A stretch of 15,676 nucleotides of DNA from Candidatus Eiseniibacteriota bacterium (GCA_052390515.1 JBQTGV010000042.1:1-15676); one strand, 5' to 3'. Numbered from the stretch's first letter, positions 1 to 15,676 are shown. Made by a program: numbers and translations. Notes: generated by a model from the sequence alone, not told the origin.

Positions 1-450
1 CGAACCGGCGATATCGCGCTGCCCTATCCCGTCGGCACCTGGGGCCCGCTGTCGCCACGGACGGGCTGGGTGGCCGGATCAGAGGCCCTGGCCTCGGCCT
101 TGGCGTTCTACCGCGCCGTCGACGTCGCCTTCTTTCCCTCGGGCCACGTCATCACGCGCCCGTCGTTCGTGCCCGCCACGCTGCTCAACAACATCAACCT
201 CGGCTATCCGCGGCTCACGCAGTGCCTGAAGCCTGGGATGCCGCCGGCGCTCTGGGAATTCGCGCAGCCCGCTATCGACGGCAATTACCTGTGGGTCTAC
301 TACGAGCCGCGGACGTGCTGCATCGACCCGGTCGGGATCTGTACGTCGTTTACGGAACACACGGATCCCCGCATCCGTATGGCGTGCGCCGAGTTGACCT
401 CACACGGCGGCTTACGCCGGCTCCTCGGCAAGCGCGCCGTCCTCGGCTAA
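1..450 (+). CDS. traU: TraU-family conjugative transfer protein, C-terminal part (5'-truncated by window edge)
   Basis: Frame 1 is open from base 1 to TAA 448-450. The segments GTWGPLSPRTGWV..ASALAFYRAVDV..PSGHV..QC..DGNYLWVYYEPRTCC follow the TraU/PFL_4710-type C-terminal pattern as recalled (WGxxYPRxG, AAxxAxRAxD, DGxYxWxxWxxxxCC). Confidence 0.7.
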   Translation, partial: RTGDIALPYPVGTWGPLSPRTGWVAGSEALASALAFYRAVDVAFFPSGHVITRPSFVPATLLNNINLGYPRLTQCLKPGMPPALWEFAQPAIDGNYLWVYYEPRTCCIDPVGICTSFTEHTDPRIRMACAELTSHGGLRRLLGKRAVLG

Positions 451-512
451 GTGCTGCAGCAGGTCCGCGCGGGCGATCCGGTGGCCGTCCGTGGCGTGCG
501 GGTCGACAGGTC

Positions 513-2420
513 ATGAAGACGCGGACGCTCCGCCCGTATCAGGTCGCCTGCCACGACACGACGATTTCGGCGTTCGAGCGGCACCGACGCGTCCTGAACG
601 TCTTGCCGACCGGGGCCGGCAAGACCGTCGTCTTCGCCAAGGTGGCGGAGACGATGCGCGAGCGCGGGCGCGTGCTCGTTCTCGCGCACCGTGAGGAATT
701 GATCGAGCAGGCCCGCAACAAGATCGGCGCCTGGACCTCGCTCACCACGGCGGTCGAAATGGGCCAGCAGCGGGCTTACGGTTCGCTCGGGGCGGGCGCC
801 GACGTCGTCGTGGCCTCAGTCCAGACCCTCTCGCGCCCTGCCCGCCTGGAGCGGTTCAAATCGGGGGACTTCGGACTCGTGATCGTGGACGAGGCCCACC
901 ACGCGCCGGCAGAGACCTACCAGCGTGTCATCGACCACTTCGCCGAGGCCAAGGTGCTCGGCATGACGGCGACCCCCGACCGCCTGGACACGACGGGGCT
1001 GGAAACGACGTTCGACACGGCGGGCTTCGTGTACGAGCTCCGCGACGCGATCCACGACCGCTGGCTCGTGCCGATCCGCCAGCTGATCGCGCATATCGAC
1101 GGGCTCGATATCTCCAGTGTCCGTACGGTCGCCGGCGACTTCAACGAGCAGGACCTGGAACGCGAGATGATCCAGGCGGACTCCCTGCACGGCGTCGCAA
1201 AGGCGACGGTCGCCGCCGCCGGTCCCGATCGGAAGGCCCTCGTCTTCGCGACGACGATCGCCCACGCCCATGCGCTGGCCGAGACGTTCGGGCACTACAC
1301 GGACCGCGCCGGCGTGCTCGCGCTCAGCGGCCAGGACTCGGACGAGGACCGGAAGGAGGGGCTCCGGCGCTTCGCGAACGGCGACGTCCGGTTCCTCGTG
1401 AACTGTCTCCTATTTACGGAGGGCTTCGACCAACCGGACATCGGACTCGTGGCCATCGCGCGGCCGACGAAGAGCCGCGCCCTCTACAGTCAAATGGTCG
1501 GGCGCGGGACGCGGACGTGGTGTCCGAAGGGGTGCGACGGCTACTGCGACCACGAGAAGCGGAAGCCCGATCTCATCATCGTAGACTTCGCTGGCAACGC
1601 CGGCAACCACGCCCTGGTCAACTGCGTGGACATTCTCGGCGGCAACGCCGACCACGAGATCCGCGCGCGCGTGATGCGGCGGCTCGCCAAGGCCGATGCC
1701 GTGGACGTCTTGAGCGAGCTCGACGAGCAGCAGCGGCAGATGGCCGAGTCCCTCCGGCGGGAGGCGCTTGAAGCGGCGAAGCGCGAGCGCGAGCGCCAGG
1801 CGCTTGAAGCGGCGAAGGACGAGCGCGAGACGACGGTGGCCTTCACGGAGGTGGACCCGTTCACGACCGTGTTCTCCGTGCTCAAGGTCCGCCCGATCGC
1901 CGGCCTCAAGGGCGGCCTCGAGCCGACCCCCGCCCAGGTCGACGAGCTCAAGAAGCACAGGGTTGACCTGGACCTCAAGGCCGCCTTCAAGAGGCTGGAC
2001 CGGGGCCAAGCCGAGGAAATCCTGGCCGCCATCCGAAGCCGGCACCGAAACAACCTCTGCACCTACAAGCAGGCCCGGGTGCTCGTCCGGTTCGGCTTCA
2101 ACCCGGATGTCTCGTTCGGGAACGCGAGCGCGATCATGGACGCGCTGGCGCAGAACAACTGGCGCCCGCTGCCGCCAGCCGAGCACGAGCGGCTCGCGGC
2201 GGCGCACGTGCCGGTGCCGGCGCCGAAGCAGCGCGCGATGCCGGAGGCCCTCCTGGCGGATCTCCGCGGCCGGGGCTTCGCCCTAAGGCGCGTGGACGGT
2301 GACACCATCCGGGTCACGCCGGGGTCCAAGCTCACGCCTGACGACGTGGCGGCAATCCGGGAGGCCAAGGGCGCGCTCGTGGACCTGCTCAAGGCGGAAC
2401 GCAACGACGGGCAACGATGA
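513..2420 (+). CDS. SF2 DEAD/DEAH-box helicase, Irc3/ResIII-like, about 635 aa, with C-terminal TubC_N-like domain
   Basis: Q motif LRPYQ, Walker A LPTGAGKT, motif Ia LAHREELIEQA, II DEAHH, III MTATP, V FTEGFD, VI QMVGRGTR. Start set at ATG 513 because the track's extension to 222 overlaps traU. Confidence 0.92.
   Translation: MKTRTLRPYQVACHDTTISAFERHRRVLNVLPTGAGKTVVFAKVAETMRERGRVLVLAHREELIEQARNKIGAWTSLTTAVEMGQQRAYGSLGAGADVVVASVQTLSRPARLERFKSGDFGLVIVDEAHHAPAETYQRVIDHFAEAKVLGMTATPDRLDTTGLETTFDTAGFVYELRDAIHDRWLVPIRQLIAHIDGLDISSVRTVAGDFNEQDLEREMIQADSLHGVAKATVAAAGPDRKALVFATTIAHAHALAETFGHYTDRAGVLALSGQDSDEDRKEGLRRFANGDVRFLVNCLLFTEGFDQPDIGLVAIARPTKSRALYSQMVGRGTRTWCPKGCDGYCDHEKRKPDLIIVDFAGNAGNHALVNCVDILGGNADHEIRARVMRRLAKADAVDVLSELDEQQRQMAESLRREALEAAKRERERQALEAAKDERETTVAFTEVDPFTTVFSVLKVRPIAGLKGGLEPTPAQVDELKKHRVDLDLKAAFKRLDRGQAEEILAAIRSRHRNNLCTYKQARVLVRFGFNPDVSFGNASAIMDALAQNNWRPLPPAEHERLAAAHVPVPAPKQRAMPEALLADLRGRGFALRRVDGDTIRVTPGSKLTPDDVAAIREAKGALVDLLKAERNDGQR
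1762..1829 (+). repeat. In-frame 36-bp-period tandem duplication in the helicase (ALEAAKRERE / ALEAAKDERE)
   Basis: AGGCGCTTGAAGCGGCGAAG is exact at 1762-1781 and 1798-1817; the match extends to 32 nt with 2 mismatches. Confidence 0.85.
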
Positions 2421-2737
2421 TTCAACATCGCCTTCAAGACGCCGACACGCGCGTGCGCTGGAGAACCCGGCCGGCCAGCGACGACAACTGGGGCGTCTCG
2501 TCATGCGGACAGAGACCGTGCCGACCGAAGTGCAGGCTATCGCCGCCGCGCTCGTAGCATTGGTCCGTGGTGGCCTTCCGCGTCGCGTTCCTACGCGCTG
2601 CCATGAACAGGGGTGCGACAAACCCGATCTGTCCGCCAATCTAGCCAGCCGCTCGACGCGGGACGGCTCACCCGTCGCAATGGACTGATACGACTTCGGT
2701 GGTCGGGACGCCCCCGGCGCTCCGATAAAACGTGCGC

Positions 2738-4501
2738 ATGTCCCCAGCGCAAGAGAAGGCTGGCGCCGTCGCCGAGTCCGCCCCGTCCGCACCTGCGTCG
2801 GCCTCCGCTGTGTCCGCGCCCGCGGCGACCGCCAACCTGCGAGGCTTGGCCGCCGTCCTCGTCGAGCGCGGGTGGGTGCGAGTGGACGAGATCGAGGCCG
2901 CCCTCCAGGTCGCTGAGCGTACAGGGGAACGCGTCGGCACGATCCTCGTCCGCCGTGGGCGCATCACCGACATGCAACTCGCCGAGGCGCTTGCCGTCGC
3001 CTACCAGATGCCGTGGACCGCCCTCGACGAGAGCGAGGTCGATGTCGACGCGCTTCGCAACGGGGTCGTCTCGTTCGAGATCGCGGAAACGAGCCAGGTC
3101 ATCCCGTTGCTGGGACCGACGGGACAGCGGCGCCTCGGCATGGCGGACCCGGGGCGACTCGACATCATCGACCAGTTGCGCCGGGCCGGCGTGCGCGTCT
3201 CCCCCGTGATCGTCCCCGCCTCTCGGCTGAGCCTCGTGCTCTCGCGCCTCGACCCGGAAGACCCGAAGACGAAGATCAATCGGCTGATCCAGCGCGCGCA
3301 GGGGACGACCGTCGCAGCCGACGAGGGCTACGTCCTGCAGCTCACGAAAGTGCTGCTCACGCAGGCGATGCAAGTCGGCGCCTCGGACATTCACATCGAG
3401 CCGGATCAGACCACGGTGCGCGTGCGACTCCGTATCGATGGCGTGCTCACCCAGGTCTACACATTCCCTGGCAACCTGCACCAGACACTCATCAACGCCA
3501 TCAAGATCGCCGCCAGCATGGACATTTCCGTGAGGCACCTCCCGCAGGACGGCCGGCTGGTGCACCACGGGCTCGGCCGGACCATCGATGTCCGGATCGC
3601 GACGTATCCCGGCGTCTACGGCGAGCACGTCGTCCTGCGGCTCCTCGACAAGCTCACCGCGCTCCGTCCGCTCGAGGACATCGGGTACACGGCGCCGCTC
3701 CTCGAACGGATGCGCGGCATCCTGACGCGGCCGCACGGCATCTTCCTCGTCACAGGCCCGACGGGCTCGGGAAAGACGACGACTCTCTACGCCTGTCTCG
3801 TCCGGATGACGTCGTCGGAAGTCTCGATCATGACGATCGAGGATCCGGTGGAGTACGAGCTGGCGCTCGTCAAGCAGGCGCAGATGGACGAGAAGGCCGG
3901 GTTCACGTTCGAGAACGCTCTCCGATCGATGTTGCGCGCGGACCCCGACGTCATCCTCGTTGGCGAGATTCGCGACGCCGAGACCGCGGCGCTGGCGTGT
4001 CAGGCCGCGCTCACGGGCCACCTGGTGCTCTCCACCCTGCACACCAACTCCGCCCCGGAGGCCATCTCGCGGCTGCTGGAGTTTCAGGTGCAACGCCACG
4101 TGCTCGCCGCGGCCCTTCGCGGCATCGTCGGCCAGCGCCTCGTGCGGCGCGCCTGTCCTGCCTGTGCACGGCGTCGGCCGCCAACCGAGGACGAGGCGGG
4201 CTGGTTCCGAGACGCCCTCGGCGAGGTTCCTCTGAGCGTGCCCGAGGCGGTGGGGTGTGAGCGGTGCCGGAAGACGGGCTACGCGGGGCGCACCGCGATC
4301 GCCGAGTTCTTTGCGGTCACGCCGCAGATCCAGGACAGCATCGCCACCGGCGAGAGCCTCGGGCGGTTGATGCAGCAGGACCCCGGCTACAAGCCCCTGG
4401 CGTTCGACGGGCTGGAGAAAGTCGCTCAGGGGCAGACGACCATCGCCGAAGTCATGCGCGTGGCGGAATGGCAACTATTGTCTCGCGTGTCGACCACGTA
4501 A
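2738..4501 (+). CDS. pilB: PilB/GspE/MshE-family pilus assembly ATPase
   Basis: N-terminal MshEN-like helices, ASDIHIEP, RLRIDGVL, LPQDG, Walker A GPTGSGKTTT, Asp box TIEDPVE, Walker B DPDVILVGEIRD, His box TGHLVLSTLH, Zn motif CPAC...CERC. Start is ATG 2738 (alternative GTG 2732). Confidence 0.95.
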   Translation: MSPAQEKAGAVAESAPSAPASASAVSAPAATANLRGLAAVLVERGWVRVDEIEAALQVAERTGERVGTILVRRGRITDMQLAEALAVAYQMPWTALDESEVDVDALRNGVVSFEIAETSQVIPLLGPTGQRRLGMADPGRLDIIDQLRRAGVRVSPVIVPASRLSLVLSRLDPEDPKTKINRLIQRAQGTTVAADEGYVLQLTKVLLTQAMQVGASDIHIEPDQTTVRVRLRIDGVLTQVYTFPGNLHQTLINAIKIAASMDISVRHLPQDGRLVHHGLGRTIDVRIATYPGVYGEHVVLRLLDKLTALRPLEDIGYTAPLLERMRGILTRPHGIFLVTGPTGSGKTTTLYACLVRMTSSEVSIMTIEDPVEYELALVKQAQMDEKAGFTFENALRSMLRADPDVILVGEIRDAETAALACQAALTGHLVLSTLHTNSAPEAISRLLEFQVQRHVLAAALRGIVGQRLVRRACPACARRRPPTEDEAGWFRDALGEVPLSVPEAVGCERCRKTGYAGRTAIAEFFAVTPQIQDSIATGESLGRLMQQDPGYKPLAFDGLEKVAQGQTTIAEVMRVAEWQLLSRVSTT

Positions 4502-5610
4502 TCCGCGAGATGGACGCCGCCGACGCGGCGCCGTCGCTCGTGGACCGCACGTACAGGGTGGTCGACGTGCTGCGGGACCGGTACGAGCGCAAGGCCCGCC
4601 AGCTCACGAAGCGGCAGATGGCCGACATGCTCGACGAGCTCGGCGACCTCCTGGAGGCTGGGCTCGGGTTGACGACGGCGCTCAACGTCGTCGCCGACGC
4701 CGCCTCGGTGCCGATCGTGCAACGCGCGGCGCTCGGCATTCGGCGTCGCCTCGAACACGGCTCCACGCTGTCGGCCGCGATGGAACAGGAGGGCTTCTCC
4801 TCGCTCGCCTCCTCGGCCGTGAAGGCGGCGGAGGAGACGGGCGAGTTCGCGCACATCTTTCGCGATATCAGCCAGACGATTCGCCGAGAGATCGGCACCC
4901 GGAGCGAGGTGCTGAAGGCGATGGCCTACCCGGCGTTCATCCTGCTCTTGCTCGGCGGTGTCATCGTTCTGTTCCTGACGTACGTCCTGCCGAGGATCGA
5001 ACCCCTGCTCGGCGACGAGCGCCCCCTCGCGACGCGGCTGTTGATCGGCATGGCGGACCTCGTCACGCGCTACTGGCTGTTGCTGCTCATCGCCGGCGGC
5101 ATCGGGATGTACCTGCTGCGCGGACTGTTCCGCTCCTCGGCGCGCTTCACGCTCCCGGTGCTCGGGCCGTTTTTCCGCACGCTCGCGCTCGAGCGCCTGT
5201 TCGGCTACCTCGGCCTCCTCGTGCGGAGCGGTGTCCATCTGATCCGCGCCTTGGACGTCACTGCCCTCGCCGTCCAGGACCCCGTCCTCTCCGGGCGGTG
5301 TCAGGCGATCGTCCGGCGTCTGCAACACGGCATGCCGCTCGCCGAGGCGATGCGCGCCGAGCCACTCATCCCGCCGATCGCGGTCCAGCTCATCGCGGTC
5401 GGAGAACAGGCCGGGATGCTCGACAAGCAATTCACGAAGATGCACACGCTGATGAAGTTGCGGATCGAGAAGCAGATCAAGGCGCTGGTCGCCATGGTCG
5501 GCCCGACGATGCTGATTGTCTCGGCGGGCTTCATCCTGCTGCTGTTCTTCGGCTTGTTCCTTCCCATGTACGAGAACATGTCGAGCCAGCAACTCCTGAA
5601 GAAGTTCTGA
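4468..5610 (+). CDS. pilC: PilC/GspF inner-membrane platform protein
   Basis: Two T2SSF repeats (LGDLLEAGLGLTTAL..AAEETGEF..AMAYP; LLVRSGVHLIRAL..AVGEQAGML) and three hydrophobic segments. Start is ATG 4468 (overlapping the pilB end) or ATG 4510. Confidence 0.93.
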   Translation: MATIVSRVDHVIREMDAADAAPSLVDRTYRVVDVLRDRYERKARQLTKRQMADMLDELGDLLEAGLGLTTALNVVADAASVPIVQRAALGIRRRLEHGSTLSAAMEQEGFSSLASSAVKAAEETGEFAHIFRDISQTIRREIGTRSEVLKAMAYPAFILLLLGGVIVLFLTYVLPRIEPLLGDERPLATRLLIGMADLVTRYWLLLLIAGGIGMYLLRGLFRSSARFTLPVLGPFFRTLALERLFGYLGLLVRSGVHLIRALDVTALAVQDPVLSGRCQAIVRRLQHGMPLAEAMRAEPLIPPIAVQLIAVGEQAGMLDKQFTKMHTLMKLRIEKQIKALVAMVGPTMLIVSAGFILLLFFGLFLPMYENMSSQQLLKKF

Positions 5611-5665
5611 GCATGCGCCTGCACGCGTCGTGGAGGAGGACGTCTCCCATGCTGTCGAGGTCCGC

Positions 5666-8041
5666 GTGAACACCGCGTCGAGAACTATTCTGTCCGTGGC
5701 GGTCGCCGTGCTGGCGGCCGGTGGCTGCGCCACCACCGAGCCCGACAGCCGGATTCCACCCGCGTTCGGCCCCGGACAGTTCCGACTCGTGTCGCAATAC
5801 TTTCCCGGTGCGTTGCCACCGACGCACACCGACACCACCGCGCGCGCGGCAGCGCCGGAGCCGGTGTCGACGCCTCCCGTCGACAGAGCGCCCACGGCGC
5901 CCTCCCGCGGCTCCATCGCGCCTCCCGGCGTGATCGCCACCGTGCCCGCGCCGACCGAGAGGGGCTCGCTGGACAGCGGCGAGCGAGGTGCGACCTCATC
6001 CGCAGAGCCCGGTGTGGACCGGATGGACGGACGTCGGGTGGTGCTGCCGCCAACGGCGCCGCTCGTCGAGCAGTTGCCGAATGACGTCGTGAGCGCGCTG
6101 CTGCCGCCTGCGTCGCTTCCTGCGCCCGCTGGTCCAGCGGACGGATCGGACGCATCGACGCCACCACCAGCGCTGCAGACGGCACGAGCCGGCACGCCCG
6201 TTCCGACCGTCGTCGCGCCTACTTCGCCACCGACGACGGCCCCTGTGGTTTCGGCGCTCGTGCCCCGGGCTACAGAGCCACCGGCCGAGGCGCCTCGCGA
6301 GGCTCTGGCGCCAGCACCCACGGCTCCCACGCCCCCGCAGGCGAGTGCCCCATCAGTGACAATGCCGACGCCGATCCCGCCGGCTGTCCCGACCGTCGGC
6401 TCGCCGCCTGCACCAATGCCGGTGCCCGCCGCGCCAACGCCGCCCGCGGTGATCTCCCCACCGGTCGCGGCCACACCGGCGCCGACGGTCCAGTCGCCGA
6501 CGCCGGCACAACCGCCGGCTCCGCCCGCCGTCGCGACGGCATCGGTGCCGCTCGTGTCGCTGCGTGCGGAAGAGGTGCCGCTGTTGACCATCCTGCGCTT
6601 GTTGAGCCAGAGCGCAGGGCTGAAGCTTGAGCTCGGCCGCGGTATCGAGCGCAAGCCTCCCATCAGTGTGGAGTTCGTGGACGAACCGGTCGACGCGGCC
6701 GTGCGGTCTCTGGTGAACGACTACGGATGGGAAGTTGTGATCGACGGCGATCGCCTGCGGGTGAGCGGTGAGGTCACGCGTCGCCTGCGCCTCAACTTCC
6801 CGCACATGAGCCGGACATACGCGACAACGATCGGCGGGAACACCTTCGGCGGGGAGGGCGGCGGCTCCGCGGCCACCGTGGCCGTGAGCTATGAAGGCGG
6901 CAGTGAAGATTCTTGGAAGGCCGTCGACCAGCACGCCAAGACAATTCTGGGTCAGTTCGGGACGGTCCAGATCCACAAGGACACCGGCGTTGTCTGGATC
7001 AAGGGGCGGCCCGATGTTGTGCAAGAGGCAGTGCGCGAACTGGAGCGCATCGACTACGAGCTGTCGCGCCAAGTGTTCCTCGACGTGTCCGTGATCGATG
7101 TCACTATCAGCGATCGCCAGCGCTACGGCATCGACTGGGGCAAGGTCTTCGAGCTGGGGCAGGCCGCCGCGTGGGGGAGCCTGAGCATCGCGCAGCCGTT
7201 GAGTGGCATCGGCGGCGGGCTCGTCGGGAGCGCCTTCTCCGTCACGCTCTCGCGCCGCGAACGGCCCGACCAGATCGTGCTGCGCGCACTGTCCGAGCAG
7301 GGCAACGCCCGGATCCTCTCGCAGCCGAAGATCCTCGTCACGAATGGCCAGACGGCGACGATGCAGGTGGGCGAGGTGCTGCCCTACGTGTCGAAAGTCA
7401 CCCTCGCGACGCTCCCCGGCGTCGTGGTGCCCCAGGCGACACCACAGACCGGACAGCCCGGCACGACCGACCAGGGAACGCAAGCGCCAGCAGGCGTGGC
7501 CCAGACGGGCCAGCCAAGTGCGGCTCCGAACAGCACCGCAGCTGGGGCCCCCACCACCCCCGGCGCGGTGACGACACCAAACTCGTTCGGAACGTCGAGC
7601 GTGGTGGCGACGCCAACGATCGATCGCGTGCAGTCCGGCCTCACGATCGGCATCAGTCCGCGCATTCAAGAGGACGAGATTCTGCTGCAACTCACGCCCG
7701 TGCTGAACGAAGTCACCTCGTTCAAGTCCTTCACCGTCGGAACGACGAGTTTCGAACAGCCGGTCATCGCCACGAAGTCCCTCGCCACGGTGGCGCGAGC
7801 ACGAAGCGGTGAGACCGTGATCCTCGGCGGCCTCATCGACGGCAAGACGCGCAAGGCCGTCGACGGGGTCCCCGTAATTTCCCGCATTCCGATTCTCGGG
7901 GTGCTGTTCCGCAGCGAGGACTACAGCGTAACCAGCCGCGAGCTGGTCATTCTCATCACACCGTCGATCCGTCCGGCTGGCCCTCTCGCGCCGGCGCCTG
8001 CCTCCGCCGCGCCCGCCGCCACGCCGGCCTCGCGCCCGTAA
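5666..8041 (+). CDS. Outer-membrane secretin (MshL/PilN-like, probable lipoprotein) with long Pro/Ala/Thr-rich N-terminal linker
   Basis: Secretin core motifs RQVFLDVSVIDV..YGIDW, LSQPKILVTNGQTA, SGETVILGGLI and VPVISRIPILGVLFR..RELVILITP. GTG 5666 (GAGG upstream) gives the signal peptide MNTASRTILSVAVAVLAAGG|C. The Gly/Ser segment followed by EDSWKAV resembles MshL-type N domains. Confidence 0.92.
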   Translation: MNTASRTILSVAVAVLAAGGCATTEPDSRIPPAFGPGQFRLVSQYFPGALPPTHTDTTARAAAPEPVSTPPVDRAPTAPSRGSIAPPGVIATVPAPTERGSLDSGERGATSSAEPGVDRMDGRRVVLPPTAPLVEQLPNDVVSALLPPASLPAPAGPADGSDASTPPPALQTARAGTPVPTVVAPTSPPTTAPVVSALVPRATEPPAEAPREALAPAPTAPTPPQASAPSVTMPTPIPPAVPTVGSPPAPMPVPAAPTPPAVISPPVAATPAPTVQSPTPAQPPAPPAVATASVPLVSLRAEEVPLLTILRLLSQSAGLKLELGRGIERKPPISVEFVDEPVDAAVRSLVNDYGWEVVIDGDRLRVSGEVTRRLRLNFPHMSRTYATTIGGNTFGGEGGGSAATVAVSYEGGSEDSWKAVDQHAKTILGQFGTVQIHKDTGVVWIKGRPDVVQEAVRELERIDYELSRQVFLDVSVIDVTISDRQRYGIDWGKVFELGQAAAWGSLSIAQPLSGIGGGLVGSAFSVTLSRRERPDQIVLRALSEQGNARILSQPKILVTNGQTATMQVGEVLPYVSKVTLATLPGVVVPQATPQTGQPGTTDQGTQAPAGVAQTGQPSAAPNSTAAGAPTTPGAVTTPNSFGTSSVVATPTIDRVQSGLTIGISPRIQEDEILLQLTPVLNEVTSFKSFTVGTTSFEQPVIATKSLATVARARSGETVILGGLIDGKTRKAVDGVPVISRIPILGVLFRSEDYSVTSRELVILITPSIRPAGPLAPAPASAAPAATPASRP

Positions 8042-8101
8042 CGCCCGGCTACTCCGCCCGTCGCATGCGGCGCGGCGGAGTACGTCGCTTCTTCCGTTAC
8101 G
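8037..8101 (+). promoter_or_regulatory. Extended stem-loop between secretin and major pilin genes (possible terminator/processing site)
   Basis: TACTCCGCC 8050-8058 pairs with GGCGGAGTA 8074-8082; inner CGTCG/CGGCG surrounds CATG; outer CGTAACG 8037-8043 pairs with CGTTACG 8095-8101. Only a weak pyrimidine tract (CTTCTTCC) follows. Confidence 0.5.
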
Positions 8102-8290
8102 CGTCTCCACGCTCGTCCATTCTCGGGTGCAGAACCCTACGGCGTGGTGAGCCGCCTTTGCTGCGGCGGGCACCGCGCCGTCTCCGTACGCTGCACCTCG
8201 TGACTGGAACGACAACGTCGCCGCATGGAGGGCCCCCAGACCGTGGTGAACGGGTCAGTTCTGGCGCACACACATCACCAGCAGTCCCAC

Positions 8291-8296
8291 AGGAGG
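8291..8296 (+). promoter_or_regulatory. Consensus Shine-Dalgarno for the major pilin
   Basis: AGGAGG lies 6 nt upstream of ATG 8303. Confidence 0.8.
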
Positions 8297-8302
8297 ATGT
8301 TC

Positions 8303-8764: not shown

Positions 8765-8791
8765 CAGCAGCAGCGGACGGCACGGCCGTCA

Positions 8792-8833
8792 CCCGGCCGG
8801 CGGGGGCCCCGGCTCTCGTCGGCCGGGAGTTTC
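8792..8833 (+). terminator. Strong hairpin after the major pilin (partial terminator or 3' stabiliser)
   Basis: 16-bp stem, 8792-8807 with 8812-8827 (13 G-C and 3 G-U pairs, loop CCCG), followed by AGTTT. The G-U pairs favour a + strand RNA. A small GACGGC/GCCGTC hairpin precedes it at 8776-8790. Confidence 0.7.
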
Positions 8834-8939
8834 CCTGACGCCAAAACCACCCAGGACGGAAGATACCCATGCGCAAGGACGAAAATGAGATCTCGGTGAC
8901 CCCTCGCGGCCCGTCGCGGTCGCGCGCCGTTCTCGTCTA

Positions 8940-10118
8940 ATGCCGCCGCAGTCAGGCCGCCTCACCGGAATTCTCTGGGCTCCCCGTAATCTCGTCGCGA
9001 CTATCGGTCCAGAGGGTCTCGTCTGGATTCCGTTTCAGCACTTCGTGACCCGCGCGAAGACAATGCAGACGCGGCTGGCCTACTTCTCAGGGGACGACGC
9101 GGTGCGCACCTTGCCTGCCCATGCCACGGACGAGGAGATCCAGAAGGCCTTCGGCGCGTCGGACCTTGTCGCGGTCGAGCGGCTCCCCGCGCACCTCCAG
9201 ACCTTCGCGCTCAATGAGGTGGTCGTCGAGCAATTGCATCAGACGATCCCGACGCTCGAGGTGCTCACGCTCTATGCCGCCGTCCTACGGAACGCGATCG
9301 TCGACGTCCACGAGACGGCCGATGTACGGCCGACAGTCCGAGTGCTCGCCCACAGCACCGCAGACCAGCCGTGGATCTTCGCGTTCCGCGGGCCGCTGGT
9401 CGCGCAGGTGCGCCCGAGCGAACTCGACATGCTGCTCGTCGACGTCCGGCAGACGCTCGGGGCGATGGAATTCGACCCGAAGACCGATCGTATCCTCGCG
9501 ACGGCGACGGAACGTGAGGCGCTGGCGCTGCTGGGCGAGGTGGAGCGGTTCGACTTGTCGGCGCTCCTGACCTGGTTCGCCGATGCGCCCGTCGAGACCT
9601 TGCCGCGATTCGCGCCCGCCAAGTCGCGGGAGCGCGAGCATCTCGCCCTCAACGCCTCACGGCGGCGCTTCATCCTGGGGGCCGGGGTCGGCGCCGTGGG
9701 GCTCCTTCTGCCAGCCGGCGGTTGGACCTGGCTGGAACGCATGCGCGCCGAGTGGCTGCGCCAAGACGTCGCCAACGAGCGGCGCGAGCTCGACACCGCC
9801 ATTCAGGACCTTCGGATCCGCAACTACGGGGCGCTCCTTCGTCGTCGCGAGCCGGACTGGGCCGACGTGCTCCTGGCGCTGAGCCGCGCATGGCCCGACG
9901 GGCTGCAACTGGAGACCTTCACGGTCACAAGCCTGAAAGGGCAACGCTGGGAGGTCCGTGCGACGGGCGTCACTACGGACGACGAGGGCACCTCAGGGAT
10001 GCAACTCGCGACCGAACTGCGCGCGCGCCTACAGGGCGACCCCGTATGGCGCAAGACCAGCGTCACGCCGGCGTTCGTGAAGAGCCGTGTCGGCGTCATC
10101 ATCACGCTGAGCGTGTGA
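8940..10118 (+). CDS. Pilus alignment-complex protein, GspL-like / PilM-PilN fusion-like
   Basis: About 240-aa soluble N-terminal region, one TM helix (FILGAGVGAVGLLLPAGGWTWL), a coiled coil, and PilN-type WADVLLALSRAWPDGLQLETFTV; lies before the PilO-like gene. Confidence 0.65.
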   Translation: MPPQSGRLTGILWAPRNLVATIGPEGLVWIPFQHFVTRAKTMQTRLAYFSGDDAVRTLPAHATDEEIQKAFGASDLVAVERLPAHLQTFALNEVVVEQLHQTIPTLEVLTLYAAVLRNAIVDVHETADVRPTVRVLAHSTADQPWIFAFRGPLVAQVRPSELDMLLVDVRQTLGAMEFDPKTDRILATATEREALALLGEVERFDLSALLTWFADAPVETLPRFAPAKSREREHLALNASRRRFILGAGVGAVGLLLPAGGWTWLERMRAEWLRQDVANERRELDTAIQDLRIRNYGALLRRREPDWADVLLALSRAWPDGLQLETFTVTSLKGQRWEVRATGVTTDDEGTSGMQLATELRARLQGDPVWRKTSVTPAFVKSRVGVIITLSV

Positions 10119-10119
10119 C

Positions 10120-10683
10120 ATGAAGATCCGAGAACTCCTCTCCTTCGAGCGCATGGCTGCTGCGTTCGGCGTGCTCAGCGTCCTCGGCACCGCCGGATGG
10201 TGGATGCATCGAGAGACGCGGACCAAGGACGACGTGCTGCATCAAGGCGAGGCCCAGCTTGGCCCCCTGCGTCGCGAGCGTGGCGCGCTGGCCTCCGTTC
10301 TCGCGTCGCCGTATCCACGTCGACGGCTGATGGTGGCGTACGCGGATGCCATGCGGTACCTCACAGACCTGCTGCCTGCGCTCGATCTCGAGGCGCGCAT
10401 CGCCATGCCGCCTGGTGACGGCACGGCCATCGCCCAGAACTTCATCACGACGGAGTGGCCAGAGATTCGCGCAGTACCGCTGACGATCGAGTTCTCGTTC
10501 TGGACGTATCCGGGCGTCATCCGGCTCCTCCAGGCCTTGCGGGAGCGCTATCCGATGTCGCTCCAGGAACTGACGCTCGGAGGAACGCAGTCCCGCCTCG
10601 TCGTCCTCTTGTACGGCGAGTCGTCGGCGCAGGACGAGGCGGGGGCGAGCAGCGCGGCGCCGCGACGCCCGAGACGGCGATGA
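10120..10683 (+). CDS. PilO/GspM-like bitopic membrane protein
   Basis: N-terminal TM helix, coiled segment, and C-terminal VPLTIEFSFWTYPGVIRLLQAL..MSLQELTL typical of the PilO ferredoxin-like fold; synteny agrees. Confidence 0.65.
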   Translation: MKIRELLSFERMAAAFGVLSVLGTAGWWMHRETRTKDDVLHQGEAQLGPLRRERGALASVLASPYPRRRLMVAYADAMRYLTDLLPALDLEARIAMPPGDGTAIAQNFITTEWPEIRAVPLTIEFSFWTYPGVIRLLQALRERYPMSLQELTLGGTQSRLVVLLYGESSAQDEAGASSAAPRRPRRR

Positions 10684-10717
10684 GCCTGCACGCGACGAGG
10701 AAGAGGGAGACGAGAGT

Positions 10718-11599
10718 ATGCAACTGCCACTGACGAGGCTCGCCAGTTCATTCCGCGGGCGGGGCCACGGGGACGGCGCCCAACGCTGGAAGCGCGTCCT
10801 GGCCCTGGGGGCCACGGCCGCGATGATCGTTGTCGGAAGCGCGGTCTGGAGGACGGTGAGCGTCAGCGGCCTATGGCCCTCGTCGCCGACCCGGTCAGCC
10901 GCGGCGCGGCCCGCGCCCGCGCCATCGCCGGCCGCTGTTGCGCGGCCGGCGCCCCCCACCGTGAACGTCCCGCCCCCGGCAGCGCTGGCTCCCGCGCCGG
11001 CTCCGACGACGGCCGCGTCGTCCGCGCCGACGCTCCCACCCGCCCCCGCGGCGGATCCTCGTCTTGCGGGCATCCCGGATCCGTTCGAGGGGCAGATGGG
11101 TGGACACCCGTCGCTCAGGATGCTCGAGCGACAGCTGAAGATCACCGAAGCGCAGATCAAGCTCGCGCGGCTGAACCAGCAGCTGAGGGAGGAACTCCGC
11201 GAGGGCCAGCCCGACGAGAAGAGGCCCGATCTGATCGCGCGCGGCCGTCTCCCGGCGCCTCCGACCGCCGGCCTGCCAGTGCCGCCGCCACCCACTGCGG
11301 GCCTGCCGCCGCTGTCGACCCCGCCGCTCGCGCAACCTCCGGTCGCGCAAGCGTCGGCGCCGCCTGCGCCGCCAAAGGTGGAGCCGGTGAAGGACTGGCC
11401 ACGGGTGCGCGCGGTGGCACGGGGACGCGGCCACCAGTTCGCGATCGTTCAGCACGGCTCCGTCGTCCGGCAGGTCGCGTACAAGGAGCGGTTCGCGAAC
11501 TTCATCGTGGAGGAGATCTCGCACGACGGGGTGCAGTTCGTGCACGAGCCAACGCACCAGGCGCAGTTCGTCACGCTCTCGACGCTCGATCTCAAGTAG
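10718..11599 (+). CDS. PilP/GspC-like protein with Pro-rich linkers
   Basis: SD-like GGAG upstream; N-terminal hydrophobic segment, PDPF motif, coiled coil LERQLKITEAQIKLARLNQQL, and a C-terminal beta domain RVRAVARG..FAIVQ..FIVEEISHDGVQF. Confidence 0.65.
   Translation: MQLPLTRLASSFRGRGHGDGAQRWKRVLALGATAAMIVVGSAVWRTVSVSGLWPSSPTRSAAARPAPAPSPAAVARPAPPTVNVPPPAALAPAPAPTTAASSAPTLPPAPAADPRLAGIPDPFEGQMGGHPSLRMLERQLKITEAQIKLARLNQQLREELREGQPDEKRPDLIARGRLPAPPTAGLPVPPPPTAGLPPLSTPPLAQPPVAQASAPPAPPKVEPVKDWPRVRAVARGRGHQFAIVQHGSVVRQVAYKERFANFIVEEISHDGVQFVHEPTHQAQFVTLSTLDLK
11258..11311 (+). repeat. Peptide-level tandem repeat PPTAGLP x2 in the PilP-like linker
   Basis: PPTAGLPVPPPPTAGLPP, with synonymous divergence between the two copies. 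Confidence 0.6.
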
Positions 11600-11604
11600 G
11601 CGGC

Positions 11605-12078
11605 GTGGCCCATTCGCGCGCGTCAGCGCCCGGCTTTGCGTTGCTCGAGGTGCTCGTCGCGGTTGCGGTGATCGCGTTCGTAATCGGCGCAGTCATGCCG
11701 TCTGGACAACGCCGTCTGGACACGGCACGGCTGGAGCGAACGCTGAGGGACCTTGAAGTCCTCCGGGAAGGCCTCCAACGGGTGGAGGAAGCCTCTGGGG
11801 CTTGGCCAGCGACGCGCGACGAGTTGCACGGCCGCGTCATCAGCGAGGGGGTGGCACTGCAGACGCCCTGGGGGACTCCCTACCTGCTCATGCAGGACGG
11901 CTCCGACGTCTCCCTGGCGGCCGACATCCCGGTAGGGCTGGAAAGCGGGACATCGCTCGGAGCGTGGATCGCCGTCCTCAACCTCGGCGGCGGCATGTCC
12001 CGCCTGATCGGGGCCGTTCGGCCGTCCGCCGCGCAGGCTGAGGTGTCGCTGGAACGGCGCCGGGTCCAGGGCGACTGA
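11605..12078 (+). CDS. Minor pilin / GspG-like pseudopilin (157 aa)
   Basis: GTG 11605 lies 5 nt after the previous stop. Leader MAHSRASAPG|FALLEVLVAVAVIAFVIGAV, then WP and TPWGTPY motifs (compare GspG DPWGxPY). The track's 10873 start overlaps the PilP-like gene and is rejected. Confidence 0.85.
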   Translation: MAHSRASAPGFALLEVLVAVAVIAFVIGAVMPSGQRRLDTARLERTLRDLEVLREGLQRVEEASGAWPATRDELHGRVISEGVALQTPWGTPYLLMQDGSDVSLAADIPVGLESGTSLGAWIAVLNLGGGMSRLIGAVRPSAAQAEVSLERRRVQGD

Positions 12079-12193
12079 GAGCTGCCCTCAGCGGACGAGC
12101 CTGAAGGTCCCTTCGGCCACGGCGCAACTCTGCGCCGAGGGTGAGCCTTCATCGCGCCTCTCGGCCTGCCGCCTCCGCACCCAGGATGCAGGC

Positions 12194-12922
12194 ATGCGCG
12201 CTCCGTCACGTTCGCGATTGTCCCACCCATGGCGTTGTGGATTCTCCCTCCTCGAGGTCGCCATCGCGCTCGCGGTGCTCGGGATCATCGCAGGGGCAAT
12301 TACGCCGCTGATCATCCAGCGCGCACGGGACGAGGCGGCGCGGCAGTCGGCGCGCGAGATGCTCGCGCTGCTCGATGCCGCGAAGAACTTCTACGTGTCG
12401 CAGCCGATCAACGCGCTCCGCTGGCCCGAGGACCTCGCCGAGCTTCAGGCCGACGGGTTCGTGCCGGGCGACTTCTCCGGCATCACCCGCTTCGGCACGG
12501 CGTACGGGACGTCCTCAAACCCCGCGACCTTTTCGGTCCGCGCGATCTTTCCGACCGCCATCACGCCAGGCATCGCGCGCGCGCTTCCGTTCAGTGCGAT
12601 GACCGCCGCGGAGGGCGGGACGGAGGTCGCGGCGTCGGTCCCCGCCCCGGGGCTCTCCGCGGACCTCTCGCAGGTGCTGCATCGCGCCGGGACCGGGATG
12701 GAATCGACGATGTACGGGCCGCTGAAGATCGAGGACGGCACGCAGGGCCAGTATCGCGTCCTGATGTCCGATGTCGACGGCGTGGGGCGCTGGAGGCCCC
12801 TACTCGCGCCGGACGCCGTCATCTACTTCGCCAGGGTGGCGTGCCCGGAGGGCTGGTCAGACTCCGCCGGCGCGCTACCGCCTCGGCAGGGCCTTATCGC
12901 CTGCCGAAAGGACACGCCGTGA
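12194..12922 (+). CDS. Minor pilin with C-terminal extension; candidate tip adhesin (PilV-like position)
   Basis: G|FSLLEVAIALAVLGIIAGAITP prepilin motif, AAKNFYV..WPEDLAEL, and an extra C-terminal module with a Cys pair (CPEGW...LIACRK). Confidence 0.85.
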   Translation: MRAPSRSRLSHPWRCGFSLLEVAIALAVLGIIAGAITPLIIQRARDEAARQSAREMLALLDAAKNFYVSQPINALRWPEDLAELQADGFVPGDFSGITRFGTAYGTSSNPATFSVRAIFPTAITPGIARALPFSAMTAAEGGTEVAASVPAPGLSADLSQVLHRAGTGMESTMYGPLKIEDGTQGQYRVLMSDVDGVGRWRPLLAPDAVIYFARVACPEGWSDSAGALPPRQGLIACRKDTP

Positions 12923-12997
12923 GTGCATGCGGTTGTGGGTTCGCACCACGAGCATTCCGATGAGCGGTGTTCGCTCCGCGGTGGAAGGGAGGTACGC

Positions 12998-14002
12998 ATG
13001 AGGTCCACGGTCCTCGTTGCGCTCGCGATGCTCGGACTGGCCCCTAGCGGCGCCGCGGCGGAGCTGAGCGGGTTCTTTGCGTGTCAGCAGATCGTCTTCT
13101 TCGGGCCGTGCCCGAAGGCCGAGCCCGTGAAGACTGCTGGACCGACGCCGCCCGCACCGCCGGCCGAGAAGACCGCGGCGGCCTCGCAGGTCGTCGTGCA
13201 GCCGGCGCCCGCGCCGACCACGCCTCCTGGCGCGCCGCGCGAGCGCGTGGAGGAGTCGCTGTGGGCGGAGCCCATGAAGGGGCCGGACGGCCAGCTCCGC
13301 GTCTACGTGCCGCCGAAGCCCGTCCGCGACTTCCTGGAGAAGCCGACCGCCGAGAACGCGCGCGCGTATCTCGGGTGGAACCAGGCGCGCATGCGGAAGA
13401 TGGACGAGGCGGTCGACGTGCTCCGTGAGGTCTCGGCGCGGCACTTCGGGACCACGGCTCCAGCCCCCGAGGGTCCGCCGATCCGCGGCCCGCTCCGGGT
13501 GGCGCCGACGCCAGAGCCCGCGCTGCGTCTGCCCGTGCTTCCCGGCCCCGGCCTCACGCCGAGTCCGACCATCCCGACACCGCAGCGTGGCCCGATCCTG
13601 GTCAACGCGCCGAGCCCTGAGGGAGCCACGCGCGCCATCTCGGTGCTCTACGCGTTCGCGCCGTGGTGTCAGTATTCGCGCCAGCAGACCCCGATCATGA
13701 ATCGGCTCGCGGCGCACCTTCCAATCCGATCGCTCGTGTTCGATGCGACGCGCGACGACCTCGAGATGCTCCGTGGCGCCCTTGCGTTCGCCGTCGCGCC
13801 TGGCACCTCGGAGCAACGACGACAGCTCGCCATCCAGAGCTATCCGACTACGTTCTTCCTCGAGGGGACGCGAGTCGTCCACGTCGCGCGCGGGTTGCAG
13901 TCGGCAGAGCAGCTCGTCACCACGCTGGCGACCTTGGCCGGTCGGCAGCCGTTGCCGGTGAACGCCGTCGCACCCGACGAGACGTGCCAGGTGAAGACAT
14001 GA
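12998..14002 (+). CDS. traF: TraF-family periplasmic thioredoxin-fold conjugative pilus assembly protein
   Basis: SD GGGAGG before ATG 12998; Sec signal MRSTVLVALAMLGLAPSGAAA; TraF-like FLEKPTAENARAYLGW; thioredoxin fold FAPWCQYSRQQTPI...IQSYPTTFF..ARGLQS; precedes traH/traG-like genes. Confidence 0.72.
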   Translation: MRSTVLVALAMLGLAPSGAAAELSGFFACQQIVFFGPCPKAEPVKTAGPTPPAPPAEKTAAASQVVVQPAPAPTTPPGAPRERVEESLWAEPMKGPDGQLRVYVPPKPVRDFLEKPTAENARAYLGWNQARMRKMDEAVDVLREVSARHFGTTAPAPEGPPIRGPLRVAPTPEPALRLPVLPGPGLTPSPTIPTPQRGPILVNAPSPEGATRAISVLYAFAPWCQYSRQQTPIMNRLAAHLPIRSLVFDATRDDLEMLRGALAFAVAPGTSEQRRQLAIQSYPTTFFLEGTRVVHVARGLQSAEQLVTTLATLAGRQPLPVNAVAPDETCQVKT

Positions 14003-15300
14003 GGAGATTCGCCGTGCGTCTGCATGCCTCGTGGACGGTGGTGGCCATCGGGGCGCTCGTCCTTCTGTGCGCCGCCCCCGCCCGCGCCGACCTCTGGAGC
14101 TGGGACCAGATGGTGCGACAGAGCACGCCGGACAGCCAGTTCCAGTACCTCGATAGCGCGAGTCAGTCAGGCCTCACGTACCGCGGCAACCCGGGGTTGC
14201 CGCTGCCCCGGCCCGATGGCGGAGGAGGCACGATCGGCCAGATCTCGGGCAGCACCGGCCGCGGCTGCGGCATCGACTTCGCGAGCGAGTTCACCGCGCT
14301 CTTCAACGTCAACGCGCTCGAAAGTTACTTCAAGGGCCTGGCCTCATCGGCGATCTCCGCGGCCCCCCTCGTGCTCATGTGCTACGCCTCGCCGACGCTC
14401 TGCGATGCCTACAAGCACTTCAAGGCGATGGCCTCGGGGCTCCTGCAGGCCCGCGCGGCCGAGTGTCAGGCGGTCGAGCAGGCGGCGATGGGCATCGGCG
14501 ACAAGATGGCGAAGAAGCGGGAGCTCGAGTGCATCGAGGAGAAGACGGCCGCCGGCGTCCCGCGCTATCAGGCGCAGGACGACTGTCGCGCGGTGGCCGC
14601 CTCCGAGATCGTCGGGTTTGACATGAAGAAGGTGCCGAACGTGAACGTCACCGAGGATGGGCTCAAACACGTTGGCGCCAGCCCGGAAACGCAAGAGTTC
14701 GCTAAGGCGATCCTCGGGGACATCTCGTTCAAGACGAGTGGCAGTGGGCGCCAGACGGAACTGAAGAAGGTCCCCGTCGACGGCGTCGAGCGCGAGTGGG
14801 GCCGCCTCTATCAGGACTACGTGGACGAACTCACGACGCTGATCGACACGGTCGCTCAGGGTGGCGTGCCCCAGCCCGACGCCTTGCGGAAGGTCTCGGC
14901 TCCCGGGGTGCCGATCACACAGAGCGTGCTGCAGCAGATCGTGCTGGAGCCCCCGCACACACGGGCGATCGTCATTCAGCAGATCGCCAGCGCGTTGACG
15001 CGCGCGCGGCTCGACTTCGAGTTCCACCGGCTGCGTGTCCACCTGGCCGAGGCGGCACGGAGTGCCGCGGCGTCGAACCAGACCCAGGAGGAGATCGAGC
15101 GGCAGCTCCGCGTTGTCGACGCGCTCCGCGCGCGCCTGCCCGCGCTCAAGGAATCGCAGGACGATCTCGTCGCGGTCCTGCGGCAGATGGAGCGCCGCGC
15201 CGCGGAGGAGCGGGCCACAGCCCGAGGCCGGACGCCCGTCGTGACCGTGCCCGACCCGCACGTCGATCTCGGCGGCGGGCTGAAGCTCCGGCCGCGATAA
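13999..15300 (+). CDS. traH: TraH-like (TraH / PFL_4711-type) secreted conjugative transfer protein
   Basis: Signal peptide ending APARA|D. GCGIDF..SAAPLVLMCYASPTLCDAY..ECQAVE resembles TraH GCGGID..CPQC..SCEAA; C-terminal coiled coil. Start is ATG 13999 (ATGA overlap with traF) or GTG 14014 (SD GAGGAG 14001-14006). Confidence 0.65.
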   Translation: MRRFAVRLHASWTVVAIGALVLLCAAPARADLWSWDQMVRQSTPDSQFQYLDSASQSGLTYRGNPGLPLPRPDGGGGTIGQISGSTGRGCGIDFASEFTALFNVNALESYFKGLASSAISAAPLVLMCYASPTLCDAYKHFKAMASGLLQARAAECQAVEQAAMGIGDKMAKKRELECIEEKTAAGVPRYQAQDDCRAVAASEIVGFDMKKVPNVNVTEDGLKHVGASPETQEFAKAILGDISFKTSGSGRQTELKKVPVDGVEREWGRLYQDYVDELTTLIDTVAQGGVPQPDALRKVSAPGVPITQSVLQQIVLEPPHTRAIVIQQIASALTRARLDFEFHRLRVHLAEAARSAAASNQTQEEIERQLRVVDALRARLPALKESQDDLVAVLRQMERRAAEERATARGRTPVVTVPDPHVDLGGGLKLRPR

Positions 15301-15307
15301 TCGGCCG

Positions 15308-15676
15308 ATGTTCACCCCCCAGTCCCCGACGGGGTTCACCCCGGTCGATGCCGTCCTCGTCCTCACGGGCTCGATCTGGGCGGGACACCTCCACGCCTTC
15401 TTCTGGAAGAACGGCGTCTACGCGGTGATCGTCCTGCTCGGCGTCTTCGCGGCGGCGATGCGCGCGGCCCCGCGAGGATCCTGGGGCCCGGCCGCGATCA
15501 CGGTCCTCACGAGCCTCGGCGTCGTGTTCGTGTTCGGCTCGTCCCCGGTCACTCTCATTCATGCGAAGTCAATCACGCAAGAGGCGAACGCGGCACTCAT
15601 CGACGGCACGGAGACACCACCGCCGCAAAGCAGCGTCGGTCTCCCGATGGGGTTCCTGCTCGTCAACCATGCCATG
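15308..15676 (+). CDS. traG: TraG N-terminal membrane domain protein (3'-truncated by window edge; absent from the ORF track)
   Basis: Open from ATG 15308 to the window end: MFTPQSPTGFTPVDAVLVLTGSIWAGHLHAFFWKNGVYAVIVLLGVF...AITVLTSLGVVFVFG...LPMGFLLVNHAM. The multi-TM layout and the LPMG motif match TraG_N as recalled, and it directly follows traH. Confidence 0.62.
   Translation, partial: MFTPQSPTGFTPVDAVLVLTGSIWAGHLHAFFWKNGVYAVIVLLGVFAAAMRAAPRGSWGPAAITVLTSLGVVFVFGSSPVTLIHAKSITQEANAALIDGTETPPPQSSVGLPMGFLLVNHAM

Follow-up and report, generated by a model that had tools for sequence, protein, structure and literature searches.

A divergent type IV filament module within a rare F-like transfer locus of a Candidatus Eiseniibacteriota bacterium

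The stretch of DNA analysed here (the window) is the entire 15,676-bp contig C42 of a 4.27-Mb, 223-contig genome (G000) from a Candidatus Eiseniibacteriota bacterium, and it carries a helicase gene and the genes of a divergent type IV filament between the traU-like and traF-like genes of an F-like type IV secretion system (T4SS). Pilus-assisted conjugative elements are known; what is undescribed here is the F-like T4SS lineage and also the filament, which resembles those of mannose-sensitive haemagglutinin (MSH, MSHA) pili and type II secretion systems (T2SS). The initial annotation had listed traU, helicase, pilus genes, traF, traH and traG as a single array, and all of the listed genes are present on the + strand in that order (Table 1). 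The genes all run in one direction, neighbours either overlapping or being separated by short gaps, the GC content is 0.67-0.73 along the whole window, and the GC content of third codon positions (GC3) singles out in each segment a single coding frame, which is on the + strand throughout; the long antisense open reading frames (ORFs) are by-products of the high GC content (69%). Since the window is the whole contig, it includes no flanks.

The block between traU and traF

That the pilus genes are embedded in the tra locus, as first proposed, is borne out by comparison with related loci, because traU directly adjoins traF in all six that hold both genes (L003, L005, L006, L009, L015 and L017) and the examined stretch of these loci has no helicase or pilus gene at E<=1e-5. 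The 12.5-kb block of helicase and pilus genes (window 451-12997) is therefore an insertion. No flanking repeats or insertion scars were found at the block, where only short repeats at chance level occur, and the insert, the T4SS genes on either side of it and a second T4SS copy on contig C100 are all host-like in composition, so composition gives no clue to the origin of the insert.

The locus extends into contig C180. A 25-nt sequence at the end of C42 recurs at the start of C180 when C180 is read as its reverse complement, the traG reading frame is continuous across the join, and the part of traG on C180 matches TraG_N with 48.9 bits (cut-off 36.1). No other overlap between contig ends was found, neither at the 5' end of C42 nor for C100. 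Beyond traG, at a distance of about 0.9 kb and after one oppositely oriented ORF, lies a prepilin peptidase gene (A24_N_bact 106 bits; Peptidase_A24 59 bits), which completes the filament machine and places pilus genes on both sides of traF-traH-traG, in the portion of the operon concerned with pilus assembly and mating pairs. The ORF between traG and the peptidase gene (1266-1943, +, of C180, L019), on the strand opposite to traG, encodes a 225-aa multi-pass membrane protein with no Pfam match.

Both edges of the block are bridged at about 98% identity by contigs from metagenome runs of four other studies, the traU-helicase junction in X2 record 1, X3 record 9 and X4 record 16, and the junction from minor pilin 2 through traF to traH in X3 record 15. 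Contigs of X2 reach beyond the window by 2.6 kb upstream and 1.9 kb downstream. These independent contigs effectively exclude an assembly chimera. Furthermore, TraH, PilB and g7 (the GspL-like protein of the module) that are 98-99% identical to those of the window also occur together on a 21,135-nt contig from another source, both junctions lie in intergenic spacers after which the operon resumes in register, and the composition is host-like (GC 0.689 vs 0.701, tetranucleotide correlation 0.98). The genome is in 223 contigs, with breaks within both traU and traG, and the same bin holds a second, different T4SS copy, but against the bridging contigs we consider the chance that an assembly or binning artefact joined the pilus locus to the T4SS genes to be negligible. 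DNA near-identical to at least part of the window (5677-15676) was found in 20 metagenome runs (X1-X20) from 11 studies, none of them an RNA run, with the identity of about 98% confirmed for four of the 20 runs (X2, X3, X4, X7), suggesting that the element or its host is widespread. The habitat labels of the runs are groundwater, alkali sediment, peat, wetland, estuary and soil, those of small-share runs being unverified.

Several observations concern the related loci themselves. The C100 copy (L020:1-9739) belongs to clade A of the family described below and consists of TraK, TraB, TraC, three unknown genes, TraU and TraF; it is 69-86% identical to L017, a locus labelled Rokubacteria, its TraU adjoins TraF, and it has no pilus genes. 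Its TraC frame is interrupted by a TGA near the start. The presence of copies on both C100 and C42 could mean that one cell carries two elements or that the bin is a mixture. In a clade C member, a 9.1-Mb metagenome-assembled genome (MAG) labelled Rokubacteria (G062), TraK, TraB, TraC and TraU lie on contig C74 (L024 10131-17079), with TraU matches in two frames, and TraF-TraH-TraG lie on another contig (L018), preceded by about 3 kb of ORFs; neither these nor the ORFs between an o490-like gene and TraF in L012 have Pfam matches. Past traG, the cargo varies between relatives (L017 13112-14398; L015 13910-16495, - strand; L018 6805-10248, - strand, and 12457-14847) and includes a Dcm methylase, an AAA_13/SMC-like ATPase, an adenylate cyclase-AAA-TPR protein and a patatin.

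Table 1. Genes and other features of the window, with positions counted from its first nucleotide.
Feature	Position	Strand	Remarks
TraU-like C-terminus (149 aa)	1-450	+	Gene runs off the 5' contig end
Superfamily 2 helicase, RadD/XPB-like	513-2420	+	First gene of the inserted block
Non-coding gap, 311 bp	2421-2731	.	Between helicase and ATPase gene
PilB/GspE/MshE-type extension ATPase with MshEN domain	2732-4501	+	T2SSE, MshEN
PilC/GspF inner-membrane platform	4468-5610	+	Start at 4468 or 4510
Secretin with lipoprotein-like signal (LAAGGC) and long Pro/Ala-rich linker	5630-8041	+	Secretin
Major pilin candidate	8303-8764	+	N_methyl; frame by GC3
g7, GspL-like or fused PilM-PilN-like bitopic protein	8940-10118	+	Structure model, Foldseek
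g8, GspM/PilO-like partner of g7	10120-10683	+	Language-model neighbours, complex model
g9, bitopic Pro-rich protein with C-terminal globular part	10718-11599	+	Role by position only
Minor pilin 1 (G|FALLE)	11605-12078	+	N_methyl, GspG
Minor pilin 2 (G|FSLLE), 242 aa, larger C-terminal domain	12194-12922	+	N_methyl; last gene of the block
TraF-like periplasmic thioredoxin-fold protein with signal peptide	12998-14002	+	Pfam TraF
TraH-like secreted protein, six invariant cysteines	13999-15300	+	TIGR03755, Pfam TraH, sub-threshold
TraG_N (VirB6-like) multi-pass membrane protein, first 123 aa	15308-15676	+	Open 3' end

The F-like transfer system

The transfer genes appear, from their sequences, to belong to a rare, deep-branching and unnamed F-like lineage with some features of the mating-pair formation class MPF_G. 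The expectation that the genes flanking the pilus block would match the TraU, TraF, TraH and TraG profiles held in part, in that TraF (Pfam TraF 26.4 bits, cut-off 23) and, on C180, TraG_N exceed their cut-offs, whereas TraU (Pfam TraU 18.8 bits, cut-off 26.5; TIGR03756 16.7 bits, cut-off 188) and TraH (Pfam TraH 19.2-20 bits, cut-off 25; TIGR03755 35.9 bits, E 3.8e-9, cut-off 270) score below theirs. The TraU-like protein is 58-63% identical to the product of the gene preceding traF in the six related loci, the TraF-like protein is 46-49% identical to clade A TraF, and the N-terminus of TraG in the window, which has no profile match of its own, is 47% identical to the TraG_N protein TraG of L017. 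The start of traH overlaps the stop of traF (ATGA), and 10 of 18 members of the TraH-like family match Pfam TraH at E<=0.01 (best 6.9e-5).

Only 21 relatives of the TraH-like protein were found among 5.8 billion clustered proteins, none of them informatively named. Relatives are encoded at 14 metagenome loci and at two loci of MAGs labelled Rokubacteria; no tblastn match was obtained in 72,556 PLSDB plasmids, the protein is absent from the other 11 genomes of the host phylum, and a comparison of its alignment with viral contigs gave no relatives. In a maximum-likelihood tree of 21 TraH-like sequences, L017, L015 and P0002-P0009 form a tight clade A (100/99 support), the window's sequence is a separate branch beside it (best identity 62%), and more distant groups include L018. 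Together with the low identity of the family's TraC to known plasmid TraC (23-25%, PLSDB), the rarity of the TraH-like protein agrees with the initial suggestion of an undescribed lineage.

The upstream part of the system can be followed in the relatives. On a public 86-kb contig (L015), TraK_C (28.3 bits), TrbI/TraB (71.3 bits) and TraC_F_IV (59.6 bits) are followed by three unrecognised genes and then by TraU (20.4 bits), TraF (26.3 bits), TraH (23.5 bits) and TraG_N (43.2 bits); the TraC of this locus also carries P-loop_TraG and AAA_10. In the genome G061 (L017/L022), a RAQPRD-like gene, a VirB2/TrbC-type pilin, TraL and TraE/DUF2895 precede the set from TraK to TraG, these four assignments coming from G061 alone. 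TraC, which is not encoded on the window, scores in relatives 292 bits on the F-type model TIGR02746 (cut-off 567) vs 93.5 bits on the MPF_G model TIGR03744 (cut-off 521), and 58-60 bits on TraC_F_IV (cut-off 28.1), and TraB also scores best on the F-type model. Further integrative and conjugative element (ICE) models gave 16.9 bits (TIGR03749, cut-off 139) and 28.8 bits (TIGR03752, cut-off 241). Among the three genes between TraC and TraU in the relatives there were no matches to TraN, TraW, TrbC or TraV, for which divergent homologues are possible, and one of the three has a sub-threshold match to Peripla_BP_6.

The mixture of F-type and MPF_G traits noted initially is thus recovered, since TraC and TraB prefer F-type models, the TraU-like and TraH-like proteins score best on TIGR03756 and TIGR03755, and TraE matches both DUF2895 and TraE. 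According to an excerpt of the comparison in PMC4027160, MPF_G is the only class besides MPF_F with homologues of TraU, TraF, TraW, TrbC and TraH, a distribution in keeping with our view that the family branches deeply among F-like systems and has some G-like traits. With F-type systems (F, R27, IncC/SXT) it shares, in the relatives, the order pilin, traL, traE, traK, traB, traC and then traU, traF, traH, traG, as well as the TraC preference and the TraF and TraG_N scores. Unlike those systems, however, it has a short TraG (about 460-480 aa, TraG_N only) and a VirB2/TrbC-like pilin, its TraC is distant and its TraU and TraH fall below the Pfam cut-offs, no TraN, TraW, TrbC or TraV is recognised, it occurs in uncultured lineages from soil and groundwater, and here traU and traF are separated by a type IV filament module. 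With the MPF_G ICEs (ICEHin1056 tfc, ICEclc, PAPI-1/pKLC102) it shares the best-scoring models of TraU and TraH and the DUF2895 and RAQPRD-like signals of the relatives, and PAPI-1, as far as the excerpted source describes it, also couples a type IV pilus to transfer. It differs from them in its TIGR037xx scores, all of which fall well short of the cut-offs, in the better fit of its TraC to the F-type model, in the absence from the genome of any match to the TraI_2 (MOB_H) relaxase, and in its pilus, which is not of type IVb.

The filament module

The generic type IV filament set of ATPase, platform, pilins, secretin and prepilin peptidase (the last on C180) is present, and the module is, judging by its profile scores, MSH/T2SS-like and very divergent. 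Its ATPase matches T2SSE (388 bits) and MshEN (39.4 bits, cut-off 23.1) and passes NF053729, an MshE-related model of the cyclic di-GMP (c-di-GMP) motif (41.4 bits, cut-off 38); the GspE (447.8 bits, cut-off 630) and PilB (442.5 bits) scores are both below cut-off. Against PDB structures it scores 330-370 bits with PilF/PilB/EpsE and 105 bits with BfpD. The N-terminus is therefore putatively of the c-di-GMP-binding type. The platform protein matches T2SSF (153 bits in two stretches) and GspF (182 bits, cut-off 424) and has hydrophobic segments. The secretin (Secretin 113 bits) scores best on MshL (187 bits, cut-off 250), ahead of GspD (126 bits, cut-off 351), PilQ (95 bits) and type IVb PilN (86 bits), all of these being below cut-off, and it matched GspD, PilQ and BfpB in the PDB. 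Elsewhere in the genome, the short contigs C193 and C49 hold pieces of secretin genes with 31% (N-domains) and 44% (C-domain) identity to it; no second copy of any other module gene was found in the genome.

The major pilin candidate (N_methyl 31.8 bits; PilS 21.5 bits, cut-off 22) has a 14-aa leader ending in RA|FTLVE and a mature part of about 139 aa without cysteine; its frame (GC3 0.95) differs from the longest ORF in this region, and AGGAGG lies 6 nt before the ATG. Minor pilin 1 matches N_methyl (19.6-19.8 bits) and GspG (30.7 bits), and minor pilin 2 matches N_methyl (24.3 bits, cut-off 21.2) and TIGR02532 (25.7 bits, cut-off 16.3) and is a candidate tip adhesin.

The three genes that follow the major pilin (g7, g8 and g9) have no Pfam or NCBIfam matches. 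The g7 family is very small, with only six relatives among 1.84 billion representatives; among 12 genomes of the host phylum it is found only in G000, and its alignment has no relatives among viral contigs. Six weak matches (20-27 bits) in 251 genomes of the G061 phylum covered only the transmembrane/PilN-like part and were judged not to be members. An AF2 model of g7 of moderate confidence (six-sequence alignment, pLDDT 67.6, pTM 0.50) predicts a cytoplasmic actin-like N-terminal domain, one transmembrane segment (244-262) and a periplasmic alpha-beta domain, for the first of which Foldseek returned 3hrg, an actin-like fold (E 1.6e-4), and for the last PulL's periplasmic domain (5hl8, TMt 0.59) and also PilO. 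Among language-model neighbours, which serve as leads only, PilN/GspL_C occurs for g7 and T2SSM_b/T2SSM/PilO (0.92-0.93) for g8. The g8 gene starts 1 nt after the g7 stop, and a model of the complex of g7 (225-392) with g8 scores 0.65, compared with 0.00 for the best of three controls, with three runs agreeing in >=95% of contacts and a partner pLDDT of 81. The mark applied to such scores was reached by 58 of 80 solved complexes and by 2 of 110 mismatched pairs, a calibration that applies here roughly, given the custom alignment. As PilN-PilO and GspL-GspM complexes have already been solved, the result indicates likeness and is not proof of binding, and the modelled pair is best described as GspL/GspM-like (PilN/PilO-like). 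The third protein, g9, has one N-terminal hydrophobic segment (26-45), and its place in the gene order would suit a PilP/GspC-like role.

PilMNOP-type components are reported for type IVa pili (T4aP), MSH pili and T2SS and are lacking or rare in type IVb pili, according to an excerpt of PMC6668835, which places the module with the MSH/T2SS/T4aP kind and not with the R64/PAPI-1 kind. The ATPase and secretin scores and the GspL-like fold of g7 thus uphold the initial view that the pilus genes are MSHA/T2SS-like and do not resemble R64 pilL-V. A type IVb pilus (R64 pilL-V/PAPI-1) was rejected on the BfpD score (105 vs 330-370 bits), the PilS score below its cut-off and the presence of the GspL/GspM-like pair, and a T2SS was rejected because all Gsp equivalog scores are below cut-off and there are only three pilin-like genes vs five pseudopilins. 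Of the MSHA-type features, MshEN and NF053729 pass, MshL is below cut-off, g7 and g8 are plausible analogues, and MshM and MshN were not found.

The type IVb pili of R64/IncI1, IncI2 and PAPI-1 nevertheless resemble the module in being donor-encoded beside a T4SS with their own prepilin peptidase, and in their lipoprotein secretin, few pilins and weak PilS-like signal in the major pilin; they differ from it in that here the ATPase is PilB/GspE-like with an MshEN/c-di-GMP-type N-terminus, the alignment complex is of GspL/GspM type, no shufflon or Rci is seen, the module lies inside the tra operon and not in a separate cluster, and the T4SS is F-like and not I- or G-type. With MSHA pili and T2SS the module shares, besides the scores above, GspF-, GspG- and GspL/GspM-like parts and its encoding in a single locus, but its gene order differs, and MSH loci, according to the same excerpt of PMC6668835, have no prepilin peptidase of their own. 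The host has a separate T4aP cluster on contig C133, whose PilB and peptidase are only 36.5% and 40% identical to those of the module, so the module is not a recent host duplicate.

Role of the module and alternative explanations

We favour, by analogy, an accessory donor-encoded adhesive pilus that aids the capture of recipients as the most likely role of the module. In excerpts of the literature on such pili (PMC12857230; PMC12282955), the R64-type thin pilus promotes mating in liquid through the PilV adhesin, and the PAPI-1 pilus is described as essential under all mating conditions (PMC12857230), with hybrid models discussed. The contig would then cover the distal portion of a mobile element's transfer operon, with the order traU-traF-traH-traG, into which a helicase and a self-sufficient type IV filament block was inserted between traU and traF. 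The filament, presumably co-expressed with the tra genes, would extend upon binding of c-di-GMP to the N-terminus of the ATPase, and would bring or hold recipients at the donor surface, possibly by means of minor pilin 2 at its tip, so that the F-like channel could engage, as with the R64 thin pilus and the PAPI-1 pilus. The module is accessory and not part of the host core, as the TraH-like and g7 proteins are absent from the other 11 genomes of the phylum and the host possesses a T4aP of its own.

Both systems are probably present in a second lineage as well. The identities of PilB relatives are 99, 70, 69, 58, 58 and 50%, then <=48% (about <=42% for full-length ones), a steep fall-off that matches the tiny size of the g7 family. 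A PilB (P0031, 70%), a g7 homologue (P0024, 48%) and a clade A TraH (P0009, 63%) are each found on one or more Logan contigs, the longest of which is in each case exactly 26,610 nt, and the positive control, TraH, g7 and PilB of the window's lineage, was grouped correctly at 21,135 and 15,676 nt. A divergent lineage with both systems on one 26,610-nt contig is therefore probable. As the whole genome G061 has no member of the g7 family, the module appears to have been gained or lost within the T4SS family.

Several points weigh against a role in transfer. Most T4SS relatives are without the module (in the sequenced parts of six loci and in the whole genome G061), so the T4SS does not need it, and with a 311-bp gap in front of the ATPase gene the module could be regulated independently. 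The co-location on 26,610 nt was deduced from equal contig sizes and not from contig sequence. The assembly lacks the element's upstream half (pilin to TraC), and the single TraC of the genome is that of the clade A copy on C100. Searches of the genome (95% complete, fragmented) for a relaxase or coupling protein with PF02534, PF07514 and PF08751 gave no match, other relaxase families not having been searched, and a search with PF10412 gave one marginal 20.1-bit P-loop match on C150. Self-transmissibility is thus unproven, although the absence of relaxase and coupling protein is weak evidence given a fragmented assembly and an incomplete set of relaxase families. Finally, neither a retraction ATPase nor a shufflon-like adhesin switch is present.

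A stronger claim, that an F/G-intermediate family has in at least two lineages recruited a new class of c-di-GMP-gated, MSH/T2SS-like filament as an integral part of mating, is one we regard as rather doubtful. If true, this would be a third case, independent of the I-complex plasmids and PAPI-1, in which a type IV pilus and a T4SS were joined, and the first with an F-like channel as well as the first with a pilus of PilMNOP/GspLM type; in excerpts of PMC4027160, PMC12857230 and PMC12282955, accessory conjugative pili are described only for I-complex plasmids and PAPI-1-type islands, and always as type IVb. We found no literature on Rokubacteria with conjugative type IV secretion and, by title and abstract, no comparable case of MshE with mating pairs of conjugative plasmids. 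Accessory type IV pili decide which recipients can be reached and whether transfer takes place in liquid. If functional, the combination of pilus and T4SS would have arisen again from different building blocks, in phyla where conjugation has hardly been studied, and transfer might be tied to c-di-GMP, a surface and biofilm signal. Two of the families involved, the TraH-like proteins (21 relatives) and g7 (six relatives), are recognised by no profile library.

It is unlikely, though worth weighing, that the block is adaptive or selfish passenger cargo, for instance a pilus for adhesion, biofilm formation or twitching, or a small T2SS-like exporter, that sits in a permissive spacer of the tra operon and serves the lifestyle of the host and not DNA transfer. 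The absence of the module from most members of the T4SS family would fit this, as would the variable cargo zone after traG in the relatives, the promoter that the 311-bp gap could hold for the block, and the wide occurrence of RadD-like helicases on plasmids (554 matching PLSDB records, all mobility classes); single-locus type IV filament systems are also often transferred, according to an excerpt of PMC6668835. However, the insertion is co-oriented within a tightly packed operon and the peptidase beyond traG means that pilus genes bracket traF-traH-traG, this rare pilus family probably recurs with this rare T4SS family on a second contig, and the host already has a T4aP.

Compared with recipient capture by an accessory pilus, an obligate hybrid machine, in which the filament is essential for transfer or is the sole mating pilus and the helicase processes the transferred DNA, seems improbable. 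The PAPI-1 pilus provides a precedent in the excerpted account mentioned above, the helicase heads the block directly after traU, and no VirB2-type pilin, relaxase or coupling protein of the element is seen, the upstream part being missing. In relatives, however, a VirB2/TrbC-like pilin and a full F-like set occur in the absence of the pilus module, and the helicase lacks a relaxase domain, being of a generic RadD/XPB type. A competence pilus for DNA uptake carried as cargo with its helicase is very unlikely, for although type IV filaments mediate uptake in many bacteria, according to the excerpted literature, and the helicase is adjacent to the pilus genes, the contig has no ComEA, ComEC or DprA-like gene, there is no retraction ATPase, and the helicase is RadD/XPB-like.

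The 311-bp gap has no frame with coding-type GC3 and lies in a hypervariable region, with short indels at 2398-2461 and 2557-2561 among metagenome contigs that are otherwise about 98% identical, and with a 62-nt stretch of the window replaced by 75 nt in the metagenome contigs. An Rfam scan gave 0 families, and a scan for promoters and terminators gave one promoter-like and five terminator-like sites vs 0.5 and 4.4 expected, with no consensus promoter or terminator in the gap. If the pilus genes have a promoter of their own, it would most probably lie in this gap.

The helicase itself matches ResIII (116 bits) and Helicase_C (50 bits), scores 180 bits on the RadD model (cut-off 720) and 132 bits against RadD in the PDB (6jde), and has a zinc-ribbon-like Cys cluster and a coiled-coil C-terminal extension of about 200 aa. 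It could travel as an independent passenger, or it might work on DNA in either recipient or donor cells. Within the coiled-coil extension, a tandem duplication of 36 nt (1757-1828, 89% identical) encodes two 'EALEAAK..ERE' repeats.

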